This document shows, piece by piece, positions 9,762 through 31,214 of a stretch of DNA of 32,000 nt. How positions within the stretch are numbered: the stretch's first letter is position 1; each line of letters opens with the position of its first letter. Origin of the DNA: Candidatus Saccharimonadota bacterium (GTDB lineage: Bacteria; Patescibacteriota; Gracilibacteria; BD1-5; UBA6164); NCBI GenBank assembly GCA_004563595.2, contig CP042461.1:1260001-1292000 (forward strand). Direction: 5' to 3'. The notes under the pieces are model-generated. The model made no database searches. It saw only the letters and a program-made list of their open reading frames with translations, and was not told the DNA's origin. The position numbers and the translations under genes were made by a program.

Positions 9762-10124
9762 TTATGCCCCAACAAGGAGACCAAGAACCCATGTAACAAT
9801 AGAACCTGCGATAAAGATTACTACTAATCAAATAGCCGCTTGAGTAATAATTGTTCTTCATGTTTTTACTTTTTCTTCATCTCAACCAGCAGTTAAGATA
9901 TTGAAACCTCCCCAAAGGAGATATACAACTGCAAGAATAGCAAGAAAAGCCATAGCGTTTGCAATAATATTTTGTATTGTTACATCTGCTCCTTGACCAG
10001 TATCTCCTATCTTTTGATCTACTTTTCCTAAACCAAAATCTGGTGCTGCATTTACAGAATTTAATGCTAATAACCCTGCACCAGCTGAAGCATAAAATGT
10101 GTTTTTTACTATATTTTTCATCAT
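9762..10124 (-). CDS. VirB2/TrbC-like T4SS pilin family protein (single module)
   Basis: 120 aa. The signal peptide is MMKNIVKNTFYASAGAGLLALNSVNAAPD. The hairpin module is AFLAILAVVYLLWGGFNILTAGGDEEKVKTGRTIITQAAIGLVVIFIAGSIV (TM, G-DEEK-basic turn, TM). The track ORF stops at TGA 9882, but reading continues to TAA at 9762-9764. Confidence 0.7.
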
Positions 10125-12462: not shown

Positions 12463-14442
12463 TTAAGCTATGTCCTTTTTTACTCATTCTATTCACTGAT
12501 TTATTGATGCAATAAGCTCTGTTCCTTTTCCACTTACAGGTAATGACTGTACTAATTCACCTGAACTATTAAAAACTCATGCTTTTATTTCTCCTAAACG
12601 TTTATTTCTAGATCAGAATTTACTAAACAGACTTGTTTTTGTTTCTTCTCTATACATTATTACAGCATAGTCTCCTCCTTTGTTAGGGATGATACCTACT
12701 TGTTTTTTGTTTGAAGTTCCATTTTCTAAACTTGCAACTGCTACTTCTAGTACTTGAGTATTGTACCCTTGTTCAATATTATTTCTTTGTTCGTTTATAT
12801 ATGCAATTGCTTGTTCTTCTGATTCTATAACAGTATCTCCCATACCAATGGGAGAGTCAGAAATTCAGTCTGTCCATGTTGTATCATATGTAATAGCCAT
12901 TGATTCATCATCAAGTTCTAATGTAATAGTTTCTCAATTTACTCATATAAATGTTGTTAAATCTTTATCAGTAAAGGTTTTAACAAGAAATTCCTTTGTT
13001 GTTTTATACGCTTCAGCAGTTGTTTCAACCACATTATCATATACTTCTCCAGAAGCCTTCGTAAAATCATCAAATGCTTCTCAGGATGCATCAACAATAT
13101 TATCAAAAGTTGATGGTTCTTCAGCTGAACTATCATCAGCTATGAGAATGTCCATATCTATATTATTCATTGCTGCTTCAAATGCGTCCATTTCAGCAAT
13201 TGTTGACTTTCATGCTTTATTAATATCGCTTTCGAACTGAGTAGAAAGGTCCGCATATACCTCTTGATTCTTTATGTATTTCACTCATAAACCTTTTACT
13301 TGCCCCAGTCTCATTTGCTCCTTATCCTTCACTTCTGAATTAAAAGTTTCCATTGCAATTTTTGCTGTACTAACTTCTATTAAACTTGCCTTTCATACTC
13401 CAAGTAAAGGCTTCATTGTTGCTTCTAAATTAGCTTTTGATTCTATCGTTCAATAAAGAACATCTACATTTTTCATATTATTTCTATACTCTTTATTCAT
13501 AGAAATTACAGTTTGAAACCTATCAGCTTCTTGCTCCGCTTGAGATTTTTGCTCTGCTAATACTCTTGCATGTTCAGCTTCCGCTTGAGATTTTTGTTCT
13601 GCCAATACTCTTGCCTGTTCAGCTTCCGCTTGAGATTTTTGTTCTGCCAATACTCTTACCTGTTCAGCTGCTGCTTGGGATTTTTGCTCTGCTAATACTC
13701 TTACCTGTTCAGCTGCTGCTTGGGATTTTTGCTCTGCTAATACCCTTGCTTGCTCTGCTTCTCCTGTTTGTCTAACTTGATTTAATTTTGCTAAATTTTC
13801 TTCATCACCTTCAGCTTCTGATCTAACTTTTGTAAAATCAACTTTATTATTATTAGATAAATTATCATCAAATGATGTATAAAACTCTGATATATTTGTA
13901 TCTTGATTAAATTTTCAATCTGTCATACTGATATATCAATGTTCATCAGTGTTATCAGTTATATCTTTCATATAAGATTCTTTTCTATAAACCAGAATTT
14001 TATTTGATCAACTATTATGAACTAGAGAAAAAACTTTATTCTTATCGTCTTTTACTGTTGAAGCAATACTATTATAGTCGGGTAAATTTATACCAGCTGA
14101 CGCACTTAAAAGGTTTTTAATAGCATTAAATGTATCTTCTGAGTCTACTGTATATCAGTTTTCTAACATTGCTAACATTGATTCTTTTAAGCTTTCTTTT
14201 GTATCAGTATATATTCTCTCTTTATCTTCATTAAGCCTTTGAGATAACTCGTCAATATCTTCCTTATCTTTCCCATCAATTTTATTATCTGCTGAAATAT
14301 CAGCTAACAATTCACTCACTGACTTTTCTTCGGAAGCTTTTTGTTCAGTTTTTTCTTGAGTCTCTCCAGATAATCATTCAGGTGTACCAAGTAAACTCCC
14401 CCTTACAGTCATCATAAATAAATTCTTGTAGAAATGGAACAT
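12463..14442 (-). CDS. hypothetical acidic protein with a central coiled-coil-like tandem repeat
   Basis: One open frame of about 650-659 aa under code 25, with candidate starts at 14442 or at ATG ATG 14415. It contains five copies of RVLAEQKSQA(A/E)AE(Q/H)(V/A). The flanking regions are rich in D/E/N/S/T. The stop is TAA at 12463-12465. No family recognised. Confidence 0.7.
13538..13762 (-). repeat. 5 x 45-bp in-frame tandem repeat inside the CDS
   Basis: The units are 13538-13582, 13583-13627, 13628-13672, 13673-13717 and 13718-13762. They are near-identical and occur in two subtypes (..cagcttcc.. and ..cagctgct..). The last unit is degenerate. Confidence 0.9.
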
Positions 14443-23544: not shown

Positions 23545-26352
23545 ATGAAAAAACTACTATTTATAATACTCTGATTCTTTATCTCAACTCAAAGCGCCTT
23601 TTGAGCTTTATACCCAGTTGATAAAAAACTGAATGCTGCAACAAAAAAACCTACTCCACAAACGGAAGAGTCTTTTTTTAGTTGAAGTATTGAAATGATG
23701 CAAAATATTTTGTATTATGCAATATTATGAGTATTACTAGTCATCTGACTTATACTCACTATCAAATTTATCCGTTTTTTATTTGAGATATATTATGCAA
23801 AAAATCTAAGGTATCTCAAAGTAACTCTCCCCAGAGCAGATTCTAAGCTTGATAAAGAAAAAGAAACAAAAAAAGATTTCAAAGAAAAAATTGGAATGAT
23901 GAGTATGTTTTATAAAGCAATACATAAGCTCAGTGAAGCCTGATTACGTGATACATTTTTAAACTTCCTTTTTAGACATTCAAAAATTAGTTTAGAACTT
24001 GTGTATAAAGATGGTGAAGTAACTTTTTATATTGTGACGTATAAAAATTACGTAAATCTTGTTACTCAACATTTAACATCAGTATATACAGATGCTGAGG
24101 TTCTTGTTGTTGACCCAAAAGATGATTATATCAAAATAAAACCAAAAGGATATTCTATGAGAGCAGCCTCTCTTTGAAAAGAACATGATGATGTGTATCC
24201 TATCAAAACATATAAATACTTAGAAGATGATCCTATAAACAATTTCACAAATGTATTTGGAGGCTTAAAAAAAGAAGATAAAGCTGTATTTCAACTCGTT
24301 ATTAAACCAGATTTTAAATGGAATAAAAAAGCATTAAATGCTTCAAGGCTGGTAGCAAAAGGACAGTATGGGAAAAAAAGAAAAAACCCACTGAGTTTTC
24401 TTGGATTTTTATACAACCCAATTATTGCAGTAATTCAATGACCAGATAGTATGATAGCTGGAGGTAATAATGCTCCTGGAGCGAGTGAAGGAGATGCATA
24501 TAAAATATTTAATCAAGCTGAAACAGAAGCCCAAAAAATCATGTGAGAAGCTGCTGCTCAGCCTGCTTTTAAAAGCTCAATTAGAGTGTTAGTAAGTAGT
24601 AAAGATCATAGAAGTTCTGAAAATGGGGTTCATGCTATTGTTGCTGCTGCATCAATTTTTACTGATGAGTATAACAACTCTCTTGATAATCCTCAAGTAA
24701 TGGAAGATGCTTTTCCATTTATATTTACTCCAATGAGATACTTTGGTTTTAAATTTAAACTCGTTGGTTTTTTTCAAAATGTATCGTATTTTTCTGCTGA
24801 TGAAATATCAACTCTCTATCACCTCCCAGATATAACCTATAATAGATCTCCAATTATTAATTGGTTGGAATATAAAAAACTCCCTACTCCTCATAATTTA
24901 AAAACCCCTCAAGAACCCACTATGCTCCAAGAAAAGGTAAAAGTAGGAGAAAAGGATGGGAAAGCAATTTATGAAACCAAAGATGTCCACAGACACCTTT
25001 GAGGATTCCCTGTCTATAAAGACTGAGTTGTACTTGGGTGGAATGAATATAGAAACAAGAAAACTCCTATATATTTCAATAGAAAAGATAGATGAAGACA
25101 TCATTATATCATCTGAAAATCATGAGGATGAAAGTCAGTTTTTATTGGATACCTTGCAAGACAAGATCTCCGGAATGGAGATGGTATCTGTGTGGTAGAT
25201 CCACATGGGGATTTAGTTGAAGATGTCCTTGCATTTACACCAAAAGAAAGAGCAAAAGATGTAATAGTCTTTGATCCAGCTGATACTGAAAGACCAATGG
25301 GACTCAATATGTTAGAAGTTATTAGTAAAGATCCTGAAATCAGAAAAAGAGAAATGGATAGAGCTGCTATGGACGCTACTGAAATATTTATCAAAATCTT
25401 TGGGGATGAAATCTTTGGTCCAAGAATCCAGCATTACTTCCGTAATGGGTGTCTCACTCTGATGGAAGATGAAGAAGATGGTGGAACTATCATAGATGTA
25501 CCGAGGCTTTTTGTAGATGAGGCATTTATGAAATATAAGACTTCAAAAATAAAAAATCCCGTAGTAAAATCATTCTGGGAGCATGAATATGCAAATACAG
25601 GAGATAGGGAAAAACAAGAAATGATACCGTATTTTTCTTCTAAATTCTGACCATTTATTACTAATACAACGATAAGAAATATTATCGGACAGCCAAAATC
25701 TGCTTTTAACATTAGAGAGATTATGGATAACAGAAAGGTTCTTCTTGTAAATCTATCAAAAGGGAAAATCTGATCTCTCAATGCACAATTACTGGGGCTC
25801 ATATTTGTATCCAAAATAAATATGGCTGCTATGTCGAGAGCTGATATGCCTGAGGAGGAAAGGAAAGATTTTTATATGTATGTTGATGAGTTTCAAAATT
25901 TTGCTACAGAAACCTTTTGAGAAATTCTATCAGAAGCCAGAAAATATCACCTCGCACTTATAATGGCTCACCAATTTATTGCACAAATATGATGAAATGG
26001 TTCTCCAAAATGAGATAAACCGAGTATCAAAGATGCGGTATTTGGGAATGCTGGTACTATTATGAGTTTCAAGGTTTGAGCCGATGATGCTGAGTATATG
26101 GAAAAAGAATATGCTCCTCTGCTCTCTCAACAAGATATTATCTGAATTGCGAACTTTACAGCATATTGTAAACTTAATATTGATAACGCAACAACCAGAC
26201 CATTTGATTTAAAAACAATATGGGATAATACCTATAAGAATAGAAAAATTGCTGAAATAATTAAAGAATATTCGAGAAAAAAATATTGAAGAAAGAAAAA
26301 GTATGTAGATATGGAAATCGAAGCAAGATTATGAATTATGCCTGATGAATAA
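23545..26352 (+). CDS. type IV secretion coupling protein-like ATPase (VirD4/TraG/TraD family)
   Basis: 935 aa in a single frame joining track ORFs 24193, 24586 and 25192. It has two N-terminal hydrophobic segments. The Walker A motif is HHYIIGKSGGGKS (25108-25137), with three Gly encoded by TGA. It also has VVDPHGDL, a Walker B-like FYMYVDEFQNF, LIMAHQ, and GNAGTIMSF as in TraG-D C-terminal regions. Confidence 0.8.
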
Positions 26353-26385: not shown

Positions 26386-27354
26386 ATGAAAGTATTAATA
26401 AAAATTGTATTACTTGTTATGATAGCCTTGAATGCCCTCATTCTTACTAATACGTTTGCAGCTGTTGATGATAATTTAAATACAGGGAATCAGCAACCAA
26501 CAAATACTATTATAAATACTCATTTAGAAAAGGTAAAAGGAGCTGATAGTTCTATTTGAGTATGAGCGATAGGGTGAGAAAAATGAATTTACAACTCCAT
26601 GATTAGGATTGCAAGGGATCTCAAAAATGTCTTTTTCTTTATTGCCTGACTCTATCTTGTTTTTCTTGTATTAAGGCTCCTATTTGCTGAAAATACAGAA
26701 GAAGAAGCGGGGAATTTCAAGAAATGAATTATCTGGACCAGTCTCTGACTTGTTATTATGCAGCTCTCCTACTCTGTTATAAAAGTTCTCTTTGATAAAG
26801 ATATTTCAGAGCGACTTGCTGTCGACTTCATAGATGCAATAATTAATCCTCTTATTCAGCTTGTAGAAACATGAGCAAGTTTTATGTTTATCTGAATTGC
26901 AATATATTCATTTTATGCAATTGTCACAGCAAATGGAGATGAAGAAAAAATAAAAACTTGAAAGATGTCAGTTTTGTATGGAATTATCTGATTTATTATT
27001 ATTAAATTCTCTACAACCATAGTTGATTCTGTATATTGAAAAATCAACTGTCCTACTGTAAGTATAAAGAGTATTTTTGATACTTCTCTATGAAATAAAT
27101 GTATAGAGAAAACAAATCTGAGCTGATTGACAGGTATCATTGTAGATATAATAAACTGGATGAATTCTCTTGTATGAATTGCAGTAATAATAATGATAAT
27201 ATATGCTTGAGTTCAAGTACTATTCTCTGCAGGAGATGAAGAAAAACTAAAAAATGCTAAAAGATCAATATTCTATATTGCTCTATGATTATTCATACTT
27301 GTAATGAATTATATGATTTTAACATTCTTTATTATACCAAATAGCACTATTTAA
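26386..27354 (+). CDS. secreted/membrane protein made of three pilin-like TM-hairpin modules
   Basis: 322 aa. The signal peptide is MKVLIKIVLLVMIALNALILTNTFAA. The modules are ...LRLLFAENTEEEAGNFKKGIIWTSLGLVIM, ...FYAIVTANGDEEKIKTGKMSVLYGIIGFIII and ...IYAGVQVLFSAGDEEKLKNAKRSIFYIALGLFILV. Confidence 0.65.
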
Positions 27355-27369
27355 CAATAAATAATAGAC

Positions 27370-28284
27370 ATGAAAACTTTTATAAAAATTCTCCTCACAT
27401 GAACTCTCTTCTTTTGAGCGTTTGGTCTGTTATGAGATACTTATGCAGCAATAAGTGGTTTTGAAGATAGCGCCTGAGCCATAAAGGCTGTGTCTATCAA
27501 TCCACCTGAATGATGATCTACTGTGGAAACAATAGAAAAATTATGATTGAGCATACTTACTACTACTAAAGTAATATTAGCATGAGTTATCGTTATTTTT
27601 ATGGTATATATAGGAGTACAGATGATTCTCTCTCTTTGAACTGATGAAGAAGAGTTGAGTAAATCAAAACGACAAATCATGTATAGTACTATTTGACTGA
27701 TTTTTATCAATATTCCTGGGACACTTTATAATGCAATAAATAATGATACAGCAAGTACTATATGATGAAGGGTATGAGTGAGTTCATTTATAAAAAAACC
27801 TTGAAATAGTGATTCAAATGTTTTCATTGATATATTTGATTTTTGAAATACTATCAATGGTGATATTATTTGATTTTTAGAAGTCTTTATCTCAGCTGCA
27901 GCAATATGAATGATATTATATGCTGGAGTCAAGATGCTCCTCTCATGAGGAAAAGATGAGCAAATTACAGAAGCAAAAAGTAAAATTGTTTGGTCTCTTG
28001 TCTCACTTGTTTTCGTTTGATTTATAGAAAGCTGGAAAACATTTGCGTTTAGTTGAAATATTGATGATGGGATCGATATATTTGAGACAGCTTCTAATCT
28101 TGCACTTTTTATTGCAGGACCAGTTGCCCTCTTCTTCTTAACTCTTGCTTGATATTACTATATAACTTCAAACTGAGATGAAGAAAGAGTAAAAAAAGCA
28201 AAAAATATTGTTATAAATACACTGATTGCAACGGTTATAATCCTTGCAAGTTATACCTTCTTACTCGATTTATCTAATTTATAA
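27370..28284 (+). CDS. secreted/membrane protein made of three pilin-like TM-hairpin modules
   Basis: 304 aa. The signal peptide is MKTFIKILLTGTLFFGAFGLLGDTYA. The modules are ...VYIGVQMILSLGTDEEELSKSKRQIMYSTIGLIFI, ...LYAGVKMLLSGGKDEQITEAKSKIVWSLVSLVFVG and ...AGYYYITSNGDEERVKKAKNIVINTLIATVIIL. Confidence 0.65.
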
Positions 28285-28302: not shown

Positions 28303-28719
28303 ATGAAAAAAATATTTATACAAATACTTTTGATTCTCTCAATGTTTTCTTTTTGAGTATTATCTAGTTATGCAGAAGAATGAATTCAAGTAACGGTCAC
28401 TGAAAGAATTCCTGGAGCGGGATGTGATAAATGAACAACTGATGATAATTGAAACATTTTATATAAATGTACTGTAAAACCATGATTCTGATCTGTTGTA
28501 GAAATGATGTGAAATATGATTAAATATTTTACATTCATAGCTGGGCTTGCTGGTGTCTTATTCATTGTAATAAATGGTATCATGTATTCTATGGGTGGGG
28601 CAGATCCAAGTATGAAAGATGAAGCAAAGAAAAGAATTACTGGGACATTGGTATGACTCGTTGTTCTCTTTATGAGTTGAGTGATATTAAATATCATTGC
28701 TCCTTGGATCTATAAATAA
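28303..28719 (+). CDS. VirB2/TrbC-like T4SS pilin family protein (single module)
   Basis: 138 aa. The signal peptide is MKKIFIQILLILSMFSFGVLSSYA, followed by a Cys pair (PGAGC...YKC). The module is IKYFTFIAGLAGVLFIVINGIMYSMGGADPSMKDEAKKRITGTLVGLVVLFMSGVILNIIAPW. Confidence 0.75.
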
Positions 28720-28721
28720 AA

Positions 28722-28762
28722 AAATACTCTTACTATAATATATAGTAAGAGTATTTTTTTTT
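28722..28762 (+). terminator. intrinsic terminator of the pilin operon
   Basis: A 16-bp perfect stem, aaatactcttactata (28722-28737) / tatagtaagagtattt (28741-28756), followed by a T-run. Confidence 0.8.
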
Positions 28763-29105: not shown

Positions 29106-31214
29106 TTATTTCTCACTCATAACCCAAATTCCATCCCAATTTTCTTCAGGAGAAACTTTCATGTAAGTTTCACATCTATTTTTATAAGTAATACTTGGCT
29201 TATCTCAAAGCTTTTCACACTTTTCAAAGAAAGAAAGAGCTTGTTTAAAGTCTTTCTTTAAATACAATGTAATTCACTTGGTATATTCTTTAATGACTGT
29301 CTTTTTTTCATCTGAAAGTTTTTCTTTTTCTGACAGAAGTTCATATATTACTACCGGTTTATTTTTTCATTTAACCTTTATTTTATCAAGATATCTAAAA
29401 TAAAAGTTATCTTTATTCTCTAGAAATACAGCTTCACTGACACAAATATAAGTTCCATAATACTTATTTACCCCTTCCAAACGAGAAGCTAGGTTTACAC
29501 TATCTCAAAGTGCGGTAAACTCCATTTTTCTTCCTATTGCTCAGATATTTCAAATAATTGCTTCTCAACTATGAATTCAAATCCTTGCTTTGATTTCAGA
29601 AAAACCTTCTTTATTCCATTTTTTATTTAATTTTCATAATAACTCTTGTTGTAGTAATGCTGACTTACATGCATTATACGAATCCTGTGGTCATGCATCT
29701 CAAAATGCACCCCAAAGTGCCATAATTGCATCTCCCTCATATTTATTTACAAATCATTTTTCATCTAATATCACATTCGACATTCCTCATAAATACTCCC
29801 TGAGAAAAGCTACCAGTTTTTCTGCTGTAAATTTTTCTGATATACTTGTAAATCATTCTATATCTGAGAAAAATATTGCTATACATTTCTTTTCTCCATT
29901 TAAGTTGATCTTTCAAGCTCATGAAAGTATTTCAGATGCAATATCAGTGGAAACATATTCTCATAAAGCTTTATTTAGCTTCATCTTATGTTTGTTTTCA
30001 ATAAGGTATTTTGCTATATTTGAAAATATCAGAGAAAATATAAGGGAAAATATAAGCTCTATTGGAAAGTTAATAATTAAATTTGTAGTATGAATGACAA
30101 TAAAAGGAAATATTATTATAAAAAGAGAAAAAACTGCAATATTACTCAAAATAAGTATATATCATGAGCGACTTAAATTAAAATATACTGAAACAATAAT
30201 AAGTAAAAATATCAAAACCCATTCTAGTTTTGTATCAAAATATCTTAAATAATTTTTATTCAATATGGTATTAATCATATTCACATGAGTATAAACTCAA
30301 TAATCAATACCATTAGGAGTGTAAAATACATCTTTTATTCAAGTAGCTGTTGCTCAAATCAAAATAATTTTATCTTTAAAATCAATATGGTTTTTAAGTT
30401 CTTCAAATTTTTTTGAGTCATATACATCTATAAATGACACTGTTTTTTTCTCTTTTTGAAAATCAGAATATTTTATATAATTTATAAGGATTTCCTTTTC
30501 TCAACTTCTTGCAAGTGGTATCTTTTTATTAGGTATGAGGTGATAAAAATTATCATCAACAAATGACTCTTTTGTAATAAAGTCTCTTTTATAAAATAAT
30601 GAATAATATGTTTTTAATACTGCGAGACTAAAGTGGTCAAAATATTCTCATTTTTTTGTTTTGGTAAAAGGTGTAATTCAGTATACCACATGATTTACAT
30701 CATCAATATCGGGACTATAGTAACCCGTCGCTTTAATAACATCCGAAAAAATAGATTTTTGAAAGATTCAGTTTTTCGAAAAATATGATCATATCAATAT
30801 ATTTCATGCCTGTTGTATAGATGCTCTAAACGCGGTATCTGATTCCTTTTTAAGAGACTCTTCTGCAAAAATAATATCAAACGCTATCAGAGTAGCTCAC
30901 GCATCATTTAAATGCTCTATAACAGGAATATAGGCCTTTCTATCAAAAGGGAACCTTCAAAGCTTTATATTACTATTATTTCCTTGTTCTAATGTCTTAT
31001 CATCAATCTCGACTATTAAAATATTATCGTTTATTTTTGATTGTTTGGCTTTATTTTTGATTGTATAATATGTATTTTGAATTTTTTTATCTAAAATATA
31101 AAATACTCAGGTTGAGCTCAAGATCACAACAAGTATCAGTATTATCAAGGATAATCATACTGATAAGATATTTTTTCATTCTAATGAAAAAATGTTTTTT
31201 ATATTAAAATGCAT
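29106..31214 (-). CDS. CHASE2 sensor domain-containing class III adenylate/guanylate cyclase
   Basis: 702 aa under code 25: MHFNIKNIFSLEGKNILSVGLSLIILILVVIL.... It has a periplasmic CHASE2-like region (ILIVEIDDKTLEQ...GRFPFDRKAYIPVIEHLNDAGATLIAFDIIF) and three TM segments. The cyclase core is IAIFFSDIEGFTSISE...YEGDAIMALWGA...IGIHSGEAIIGNIGA...FTALGDSVNLASRLEG. TAA stop at 29106-29108. Confidence 0.85.

Follow-up and report, generated by a model that had tools for sequence, protein, structure and literature searches.

Do the essential machines of Patescibacteria that resemble type IV secretion systems (T4SSs) build a pilus, and what is the role of their many VirB2-like paralogues? Both questions are open in reviews (PMC12857230), and both are raised by a stretch of 32 kb from the genome of a Candidatus Saccharimonadota bacterium which GTDB places in the Gracilibacteria (GCA_004563595.2, contig CP042461.1, positions 1,260,001 to 1,292,000). 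In this stretch, hereafter 'the window', to whose positions all coordinates refer, a cassette of four genes encodes a coupling-protein-type ATPase, two proteins here called A and B, and a small pilin, C; a second small pilin, D, is encoded elsewhere in the window. A preliminary description, made from the sequence alone, had proposed that A and B are 'polypilins' in which the hairpin module present once in C and D is repeated three times, and that such fusions could be pre-assembled trimers, processed polyproteins or a distinct membrane component derived from pilin duplication. Comparison of sequence profiles now confirms that A and B are paralogues, each with three predicted pilin-type hairpin modules, and we show that this '3+3' pair is a fixed feature of the class Gracilibacteria. 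It is then of interest to ask what such a pair may build.

Two paralogous proteins with three pilin-type modules each

The positions and lengths of A and B given in the preliminary description are exact, yet the two genes are read intact only under genetic code 25, in which UGA encodes glycine. Between 26386 and 28284 there are 39 in-frame TGA codons, all of them internal, and three TAA codons besides; both genes terminate with TAA. Under table 11 the open reading frame (ORF) that starts at 26386 ends after 57 aa, the A and B genes fall into fragments, and the window holds only 13 ORFs of at least 100 aa, compared with 45 under code 25. ORF calling with table 11, having yielded nothing but fragments of the region, was replaced by code 25. 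That the window uses this code follows from two observations: (i) the Walker A motif of the ATPase (25070-25093) reads g-K-S-g-G-g-K-S, its invariant glycines being encoded by UGA, and (ii) the residue found in orthologues at UGA columns is Gly in 63% (A) and 44% (B) of cases (background, 7%). Among the tRNAs found in the window, which are two tRNA-Met and tRNA-Glu only, none has a UCA anticodon.

Within this frame, Pfam family PF18895 (T4SS_pilin) matches three separate stretches in A (E = 8.5e-18) and three in B (E = 5.3e-23), and the whole-protein scores of A, B, C and D (64.6, 81.3, 37.1 and 36.3 bits, respectively) all lie above the gathering cut-off of 26.6 bits. The unit had been described as an acidic turn followed by a K-x-x-x-K/R-type segment between two hydrophobic helices, occurring once each in C and D; the turn motif was indeed found in all eight modules (three in A, three in B, one each in C and D), which align in register around it, and across 41 modules of the two families only one column, the lysine after the turn, is invariant. 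The features are collected in Table 1.

Table 1. Features of the cassette and of other parts of the window (HMM, hidden Markov model; i-E, independent E-value)
Feature	Position	Strand	Description
VirD4/TrwB-like coupling-protein-type ATPase	23545-26352	+	935 aa; first cassette gene
Protein A	26386-27354	+	322 aa; three pilin modules; 17 UGA = Gly codons
Signal peptide of A, predicted Sec	26386-26460	+	aa 1-25; ends T-F-A
Module A1	26587-26805	+	aa 68-140; turn AENTEEE..FKKG; module HMM i-E = 2.7e-19; within-family identity 0.51
Module A2	26824-27045	+	aa 147-220; turn ANGDEEKIKTGK; module HMM i-E = 4.5e-19
A2-A3 linker segment	27049-27102	+	bounded by conserved cysteines C222 and C239
Module A3	27130-27351	+	aa 249-322; turn SAGDEEKLKNAKR; module HMM i-E = 5.6e-22
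Protein B	27370-28284	+	304 aa; three pilin modules; 22 UGA = Gly codons; A paralogue
Signal peptide of B, predicted Sec	27370-27447	+	aa 1-26; ends T-Y-A; hydrophobic N-terminus
Module B1	27532-27747	+	aa 55-126; turn SLGTDEEELSKSKR; module HMM i-E = 5.6e-21
Module B2	27841-28056	+	aa 158-229; turn SGGKDEQITEAKSK; module HMM i-E = 5e-19
Module B3	28063-28281	+	aa 232-304; turn SNGDEERVKKAKN; module HMM i-E = 2.9e-13; within-family identity 0.77
Protein C	28303-28719	+	138 aa; single-module pilin; last cassette gene; PF18895 E = 3.3e-9
Terminator-like hairpin	28718-28760	+	20-bp stem, then T-run; directly after C
Protein D	9762-10124	-	120 aa; stand-alone single-module pilin; turn AGGDEEKVKTGR; PF18895 E = 5.8e-9
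Acidic protein	12463-14442	-	659 aa; without Pfam match
Tandem repeat in the acidic protein	13535-13761		five 45-nt (15-aa) copies, AEQxRVLAEQKSQAx; 91% DNA identity
CHASE2-sensor adenylate/guanylate cyclase	29106-31214	-	702 aa; convergent to the cassette, past two tRNA genes

The relation between the two families is seen from both sides. An HMM built from the A family only finds B1 (i-E 2.1e-7), B2 (1.3e-8), B3 (1.2e-5) and D (1e-10), and one built from the B family only finds A2 (2.6e-5) and A3 (6.3e-11), with A1 detected weakly at 0.25 (all computed at Z = 1e6). When the modules were compared in pairs with hhalign, all 15 of 15 pairs aligned, with P values from 1e-3 to 3e-14. The internal repeats are thus highly significant, which leaves the objection that the two proteins might not be repetitive at all without ground, and the profiles indicate that the modules of A and B are homologous to each other and to the single modules of C and D. 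At the DNA level the turn motif alone is still recognisable, with 64-76% identity; the module duplications are therefore old. Moreover, A and B can be aligned collinearly from end to end (hhalign E = 4.2e-22), and it is therefore a three-module ancestor that was duplicated, the triplication predating the split between A and B.

It might be argued that the modules reflect merely the compositional likeness of transmembrane helices in an unrelated transporter, or that the ORFs are artefacts of a wrong code: alignment scores are inflated by hydrophobic helices, table 11 gives short ORFs only, and weak, sub-threshold Pfam matches to MatE and Cyt_bd_oxida_II were obtained. However, (i) the signature shared by the modules is the polar G-D-E-E..K..K turn and not the hydrophobic helices, (ii) the cross-family HMM i-E values reach down to 1e-8 and 6e-11, (iii) code 25 is independently shown by the Walker A motif and the ORF statistics, (iv) full-length orthologues are found in hundreds of clusters, and (v) multi-module relatives from organisms with the standard code translate without recoding. 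We consider this explanation next to impossible, and effectively refuted by the code-25 evidence, the cross-family HMMs and the standard-code relatives. A confident match to VirB6/TrbL or to a family of transporters, which the preliminary description had named as speaking against its proposal, was not returned by searches of Pfam, NCBIfam, PDB sequences and, with Foldseek, of structures. PHROGs yielded no matches either.

Conservation across Gracilibacteria

At E <=1e-3 the families of A and B comprise 213 and 334 clusters, respectively, and nearly all of the best 120 matches listed per family are close in length to the query. Related loci were identified in 20 species-representative genomes, all of them Gracilibacteria, 'Peribacteria' or Patescibacteria metagenome-assembled genomes, which together with two further loci (L001 and L002) make up the 22 loci that were fetched. 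In 19 of these 20 genomes, as well as in L001 and L002, a three-module A gene comes first and a three-module B gene second. The ATPase gene lies upstream in every locus whose contig is long enough on that side. Of the 22 Gracilibacteria loci fetched, 20 have a C homologue, detected by BLAST, immediately after B; for the 20 species loci, the module HMM itself recovers C in 13. One locus (L022) is cut inside A by the end of its contig, and neither a split nor a further fused A or B gene was seen in the complete related loci. Furthermore, the module positions keep their own identity: they score 104-135 bits against their own type, as compared with 17-48 bits for modules of other lineages. Taken together, these observations show that the 3+3 pair of A and B is fixed across the class.

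Identity to the window proteins amounts to 73-84% for the ATPase (in loci with a full-length copy), 40-51% for A, 41-54% for B and 35-61% for C, so that conservation of the ATPase far exceeds that of its operon partners (~35-61%). A divergent cassette is present in Ca. Gracilibacteria bacterium HHAS10 (L021, 5809-9255), where a single three-module gene encodes a protein 33% identical to A and an 809-aa ATPase, 37% identical to that of the window, is encoded downstream and not upstream of it. This cassette may belong to a paralogous second system, or it may be a variant that branches deeply.

Predicted topology and the linkers between the modules

The N-terminus of A is a hydrophobic segment (Kyte-Doolittle (KD) hydropathy 2.5-2.7), which appears as a helix of residues 2-19 in a model obtained with AlphaFold2 (AF2). 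We infer the cleavage site of its signal peptide from the (-3,-1) rule; in the B family, this rule is satisfied at the T-Y-A column in 71% of the members. The AF2 model of A, built on an alignment of 51 sequences, further contains helices 63-100, 105-135, 142-181, 186-217, 245-279 and 285-316, with predicted local distance difference test (pLDDT) values of 70-86, and these six helices form three hairpins. When A3 is modelled alone, AF2 likewise returns a confident two-helix hairpin (pLDDT 88; helices 2-31 and 37-68). Once the signal peptide has been cleaved, both ends of each hairpin would lie outside, with the charged turn inside and the linkers extracytoplasmic, and it is this ends-outside topology that would make head-to-tail concatenation of pilin hairpins possible.

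The linkers differ from the modules in their conservation: identity within a family is 0.51-0.77 for modules, with B3 the most conserved of all and the third module the most conserved in both the A and the B family, versus 0.28-0.38 for linkers. Some of their positions are nonetheless retained. The cysteines C222 and C239, which flank the segment between A2 and A3, are each at least 90% conserved among 51 members of the A family, and the pair would fit an extracytoplasmic disulfide; the linkers of B carry the conserved motifs INIPG and W-K..AF.G.

These properties bear on the proposal that A and B are polyproteins, whose linkers would be cut by signal peptidase I or by a dedicated protease to release three single-module pilins in equal amounts. 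With the second helix of a hairpin running from inside to outside into an external linker, the geometry would be that of an internal signal-peptidase substrate; the linkers are also the least conserved parts of the proteins, and small residues at -3 and -1 occur at some of their columns in 69-88% of the family members. However, the (-3,-1) scan for such sites between the modules, a search which the preliminary description had suggested, does not discriminate, since the true N-terminal sites score no more than 0.50-0.71. Moreover, the best linker columns include conserved Cys and Gly residues, the A1-A2 linker of the window reads I-S-E and thus places Glu at -1 of the best-scoring column, the conserved Cys pair between A2 and A3 and the motifs of B suggest that the linkers are structured and not mere spacers, and no gene fission is seen among the complete related loci. 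Processing into single modules appears quite improbable to us.

Multi-module pilins in other lineages

A module profile of 72 positions, searched against 1.84 billion protein representatives, matched 44,986 proteins at E <=1e-3. The best 150 of these are all multi-module proteins, mostly with three modules, and overall the module counts range from 2 to 17, with 4, 5, 6, 7, 8 (P0241), 10 (P0302), 11 (P0266) and 17 (P0378, 1775 aa) also represented. Genes with 6, 7, 8 and 17 modules translate exactly and without interruption under the standard code, which argues that multi-module proteins are not artefacts of read-through. P0241 is present on three contigs, and the two places shown come from separate JGI and ENA samples.

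Such proteins are encoded in Candidatus Andersenbacteria, in Candidatus Peregrinibacteria and on an archaeal contig. In the Patescibacteria, multi-module genes lie inside arrays together with one- and two-module pilin genes, and the Peregrinibacteria gene is located ~3.7 kb from a coupling-protein-like ATPase gene with a DUF8128 domain, with peptidoglycan-binding and DPBB genes in between. Genes with 8 and 7 modules (L024, 8001-14557; L025, 230-6786; L027, 8001-12347) are followed by genes that encode proteins with PKD repeats (718 and 803 aa); L024 and L025 also encode a 383-aa fusion of pilin and PKD, which suggests an adhesin anchored by its pilin module. The archaeal protein (L026, 8001-13328; GCA_975902405.1) comprises 1775 aa with 17 pilin-like stretches and cysteines in each linker, and matches both TrbC and T4SS_pilin; its gene adjoins those of ribosomal protein L39e and of a Cas4/Csa1-type protein, and no ATPase gene was found within 8 kb of it. 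We also considered whether the 7-module protein of Peregrinibacteria might be a fusion of A, B and C in the sense of a Rosetta stone. This was rejected, as its modules are generic (17-38 bits, versus 104-135 bits for true orthologous modules).

What A and B may build

The interpretation we prefer, and which we hold to be about evenly poised between right and wrong, is that A and B are uncleaved, pseudo-trimeric VirB2-like subunits of an envelope structure derived from a T4SS. After Sec export and removal of the signal peptides, each hairpin would be inserted with both ends outside, such that the acidic and basic turns face the cytoplasm and the linkers the exterior, as in VirB2 pilins. A and B would then act without cleavage, each as a pseudo-trimer of covalently joined hairpins, and together with C they would contribute hairpins of seven kinds at a constant ratio of 3:3:1. 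The product would be a chromosomally encoded, non-conjugative structure, that is, a short lipid-associated pilus, a stalk or a conduit, which would be served by the adjacent ATPase and might plausibly support the host-dependent lifestyle. Since covalent hairpins fixed as 3+3 throughout the class have defined neighbours in a defined order, a heteromeric assembly rather than a homopolymer of one pilin would be expected.

Several observations weigh against this interpretation. First, the packing of the hairpins in A is predicted with low confidence (predicted template modelling (pTM) score 0.44 with AF2), and hydrophobicity is weak in the second helix of both B1 (KD 1.08) and B2 (KD 1.38). Second, comparison with known structures was uninformative: a Foldseek search of the PDB with the full model of A returned ABC transporters at a best E of 0.44, which is not meaningful, and with a single confident module generic helical hairpins only (best E = 3.6); among PDB sequences, neither the module profile nor the A-family profile matched a pilin or a VirB6. 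Third, the TrbC family (PF04956, gathering cut-off 27.9 bits) is matched below its cut-off by C (E = 4.2e-4, 20.9 bits), A (E = 5e-3, 17.4 bits) and D (11.1 bits), and B is not listed. Fourth, homologues of VirB4, VirB6, VirB3 and VirB8 were not found in the 32-kb window. Fifth, if C were an exposed major pilin, extra variability would be expected of it, and C is no more variable than A and B. Finally, it is from sequence and model that we infer both the filament and the uncleaved state of A and B. The variability of C, the Rosetta-stone fusion, the signal-peptidase motifs and the fold searches did not separate the interpretations.

The same data can be read in another way, namely that A and B form a static, polytopic six-helix platform or pore which replaces a VirB6-type translocon, and that C and/or D are the pilins that polymerise. 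This proposal gains from the reported absence of VirB6 homologues in Gracilibacteria (PMC12102498) and from the homology of the N-terminus of the VirB6-like CedA to the pilin CedA1 described by Beltran et al. (PMC9905601), which offers a precedent for the transition from pilin to pore; in addition, module positions that are individually conserved and a fixed 3+3 arrangement are typical of a structural core and not of a variable surface polymer, and A and B directly follow the ATPase gene. It is at odds with the lack of similarity to TrbL/VirB6, for which neither A nor B has a Pfam match at E <=1 and for which no solved VirB6/TrwI chain was matched, and also with the AF2 prediction, in which no confident compact bundle is formed (pTM 0.44). 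The 2-17 near-identical modules within the pilin arrays of other lineages, too, look like a multiplication of subunits. We regard a pore made of A and B as rather unlikely.

Whichever of these structures is formed, A and B bear on the evolutionary link proposed between VirB2 pilins and VirB6 pores, which are reported to be weakly similar to each other and for which a shared pilin/VirB6-type ancestry has been suggested (PMC9905601). It is tempting to speculate, although we think it improbable, that concatenated pilins are a living intermediate on the way from VirB2-type hairpins to VirB6-type pores, that in Gracilibacteria, where VirB6 is not detectable, the 12 helices of the fixed pair of A and B form the membrane conduit of a minimal translocon, which the coupling-protein-like ATPase would drive and which would belong to the core machinery of host dependence, and that other Patescibacteria and archaea strung hairpins together on their own, reaching 17 modules. 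For experiments, A and B offer convenient handles: peptides that span the linkers, a stoichiometry that is defined, and single-chain constructs suited to structure determination.

The gene cassette and its surroundings

The ATPase carries a signal or transmembrane region at its N-terminus, with ~500 aa located ahead of the P-loop domain. It matches the Pfam families T4SS-DNA_transf (PF02534; E = 1.2e-13, 51.2 bits, cut-off 20.1), TrwB_AAD_bind (24.7 bits, cut-off 20.5) and DUF87, and among solved structures it has a single relative, the coupling protein TrwB (PDB, E = 8.5e-5). All scores against curated NCBIfam equivalogs fall far below the cut-offs; the ATPase is thus a divergent relative. 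In its orthologues (L001, L027), DUF8128 is listed in the N-terminal half. A Gracilibacteria protein with a T4SS-DNA_transf domain is listed in a groundwater metaproteome table, which lends weak support to expression of this class of ATPase; the Gracilibacteria metaproteome paper contains nothing specific to PF18895 proteins.

The cassette genes are separated by gaps of 33 (ATPase to A), 15 and 18 nt. Judging from this tight spacing and from the terminator-like hairpin that follows C, the ATPase, A, B and C genes are co-transcribed. Promoter-like matches show no excess (36, versus 32.9 +/- 5.4 in shuffled sequence). The flanks of the cassette are of housekeeping type, with LysRS, DnaE, LeuRS, tRNAs and a CHASE2 cyclase, and no relaxase was found in the window. 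The gene of D, for which the preliminary description requires a correction in that it sits on the minus strand, stands alone between those of LeuRS and an O-methyltransferase, ~13 kb from the cassette; the generic module profile detects D (i-E 8.8e-10) far better than C (0.044). A 659-aa acidic protein with a short tandem repeat is likewise encoded on the minus strand (Table 1).

Annotation of A- and B-type genes

Protein A is identical to a database entry of Ca. Gracilibacteria bacterium 28_42_T64, A9Q91_05915, which is labelled 'hypothetical protein'. Many public records of the two families are mistranslations under code 4, with Trp at every UGA; in P0121, for example, which corresponds to protein B, each of the 22 UGA codons has become Trp (22 G-to-W changes). 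Entries of this kind lower the apparent identity and contaminate alignments and profiles, and they were filtered from our alignments. In a genome of 1.36 Mb labelled Candidatus Peribacteria (L002, 1-20843; GCA_023898505.1) the called genes are broken, with LysRS in 2 pieces and the ATPase in 6, and under code 25 the same locus encodes a single 963-aa ATPase together with A, B and C; it would seem that a wrong genetic code was used in annotating this genome. Table 11 fragments A- and B-type genes, table 4 turns their Gly into Trp, and the label they carry is 'hypothetical'; surveys that count the genes of 'pilin arrays' therefore undercount modules.

Comparison with known systems

The nearest described systems are the PF18895 arrays of Patescibacteria, in which VirB2-like pilins constitute a notable exception among monoderm T4SSs (PMC12102498; PMC12857230; PMC10633639). 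Quinonero-Coronel et al. (2025) reported 441 arrays with 2-11 pilin genes each, and in the Saccharibacterium Southlakia epibionticum ML1 (S. epibionticum) a six-gene pilin array of the T4SS locus is essential (PMC10633639; PMC12857230). A and B resemble the members of such arrays in their Pfam family, in their signal peptide followed by a two-helix hairpin, and in the side-by-side arrangement of divergent paralogues on the chromosome with no relaxase nearby. They differ from them in three respects: (i) the arrays consist of separate genes, whereas here the modules are joined as 3+3 within one polypeptide each, (ii) the cassette of A and B follows a VirD4-like ATPase gene and not virB4, VirD4-like genes being reported as abundant and usually distant from virB4 (PMC12102498), and (iii) the number and order of the modules are fixed across the class. 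The statement of the preliminary description that known VirB2/TrbC pilins have single modules agrees with the searchable literature, which holds single-module proteins or arrays of separate genes and does not mention several pilin modules in one polypeptide (PMC12102498, PMC12857230, PMC10633639).

With the VirB2/TrbC/TraA pilins of conjugative systems (F, T and pED208 pili), A and B share a leader peptide, two hydrophobic helices per module and a short charged loop, and the orientation with both ends outside is predicted for A and B as well. Known pilins of this group are single-module proteins, some of them cyclised or acetylated. C and D are likewise single-module, whereas A and B, with three modules each, depart from the small VirB2/TrbC format; their similarity to solved conjugative pilins is undetectable by sequence or with Foldseek. 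Nor does the window provide the VirB4-containing set of T4SS genes in which VirB2/TrbC pilins occur, the VirD4/TrwB-like ATPase being the only component present.

The polytopic proteins VirB6, TrbL, CedA and TedA possess at least 5-6 helices and are encoded beside T4SS ATPases, and A likewise has six predicted helices and is encoded 33 nt past an ATPase gene. Unlike these proteins, A and B each repeat a complete pilin module three times in regular fashion; to our knowledge, VirB6 does not consist of triplicated pilin modules.

NCBIfam model NF045849, the pilin-like conjugal transfer protein of the Mycoplasma integrative and conjugative element (ICE) represented by Mbov_0395, provides a further relative. 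B scores 50.3 bits (cut-off 40), a sum over three stretches against a single-module model of 80 positions, each B module spanning nearly the whole model; A reaches 35.7 and C 25.1 bits, both less than the cut-off. As with B, a pilin-like hairpin is found in a wall-less or monoderm lineage.

Profile scores hence place A and B outside the TrbC family and apart from VirB6. The family to which they belong is known and named in Pfam, and their concatenation, its fixation in Gracilibacteria and its wider spread appear to be undescribed. Since A and B pass the threshold of PF18895, fail that of TrbC and lack similarity to VirB6, they are therefore filed as multi-module, VirB2-like members of PF18895.

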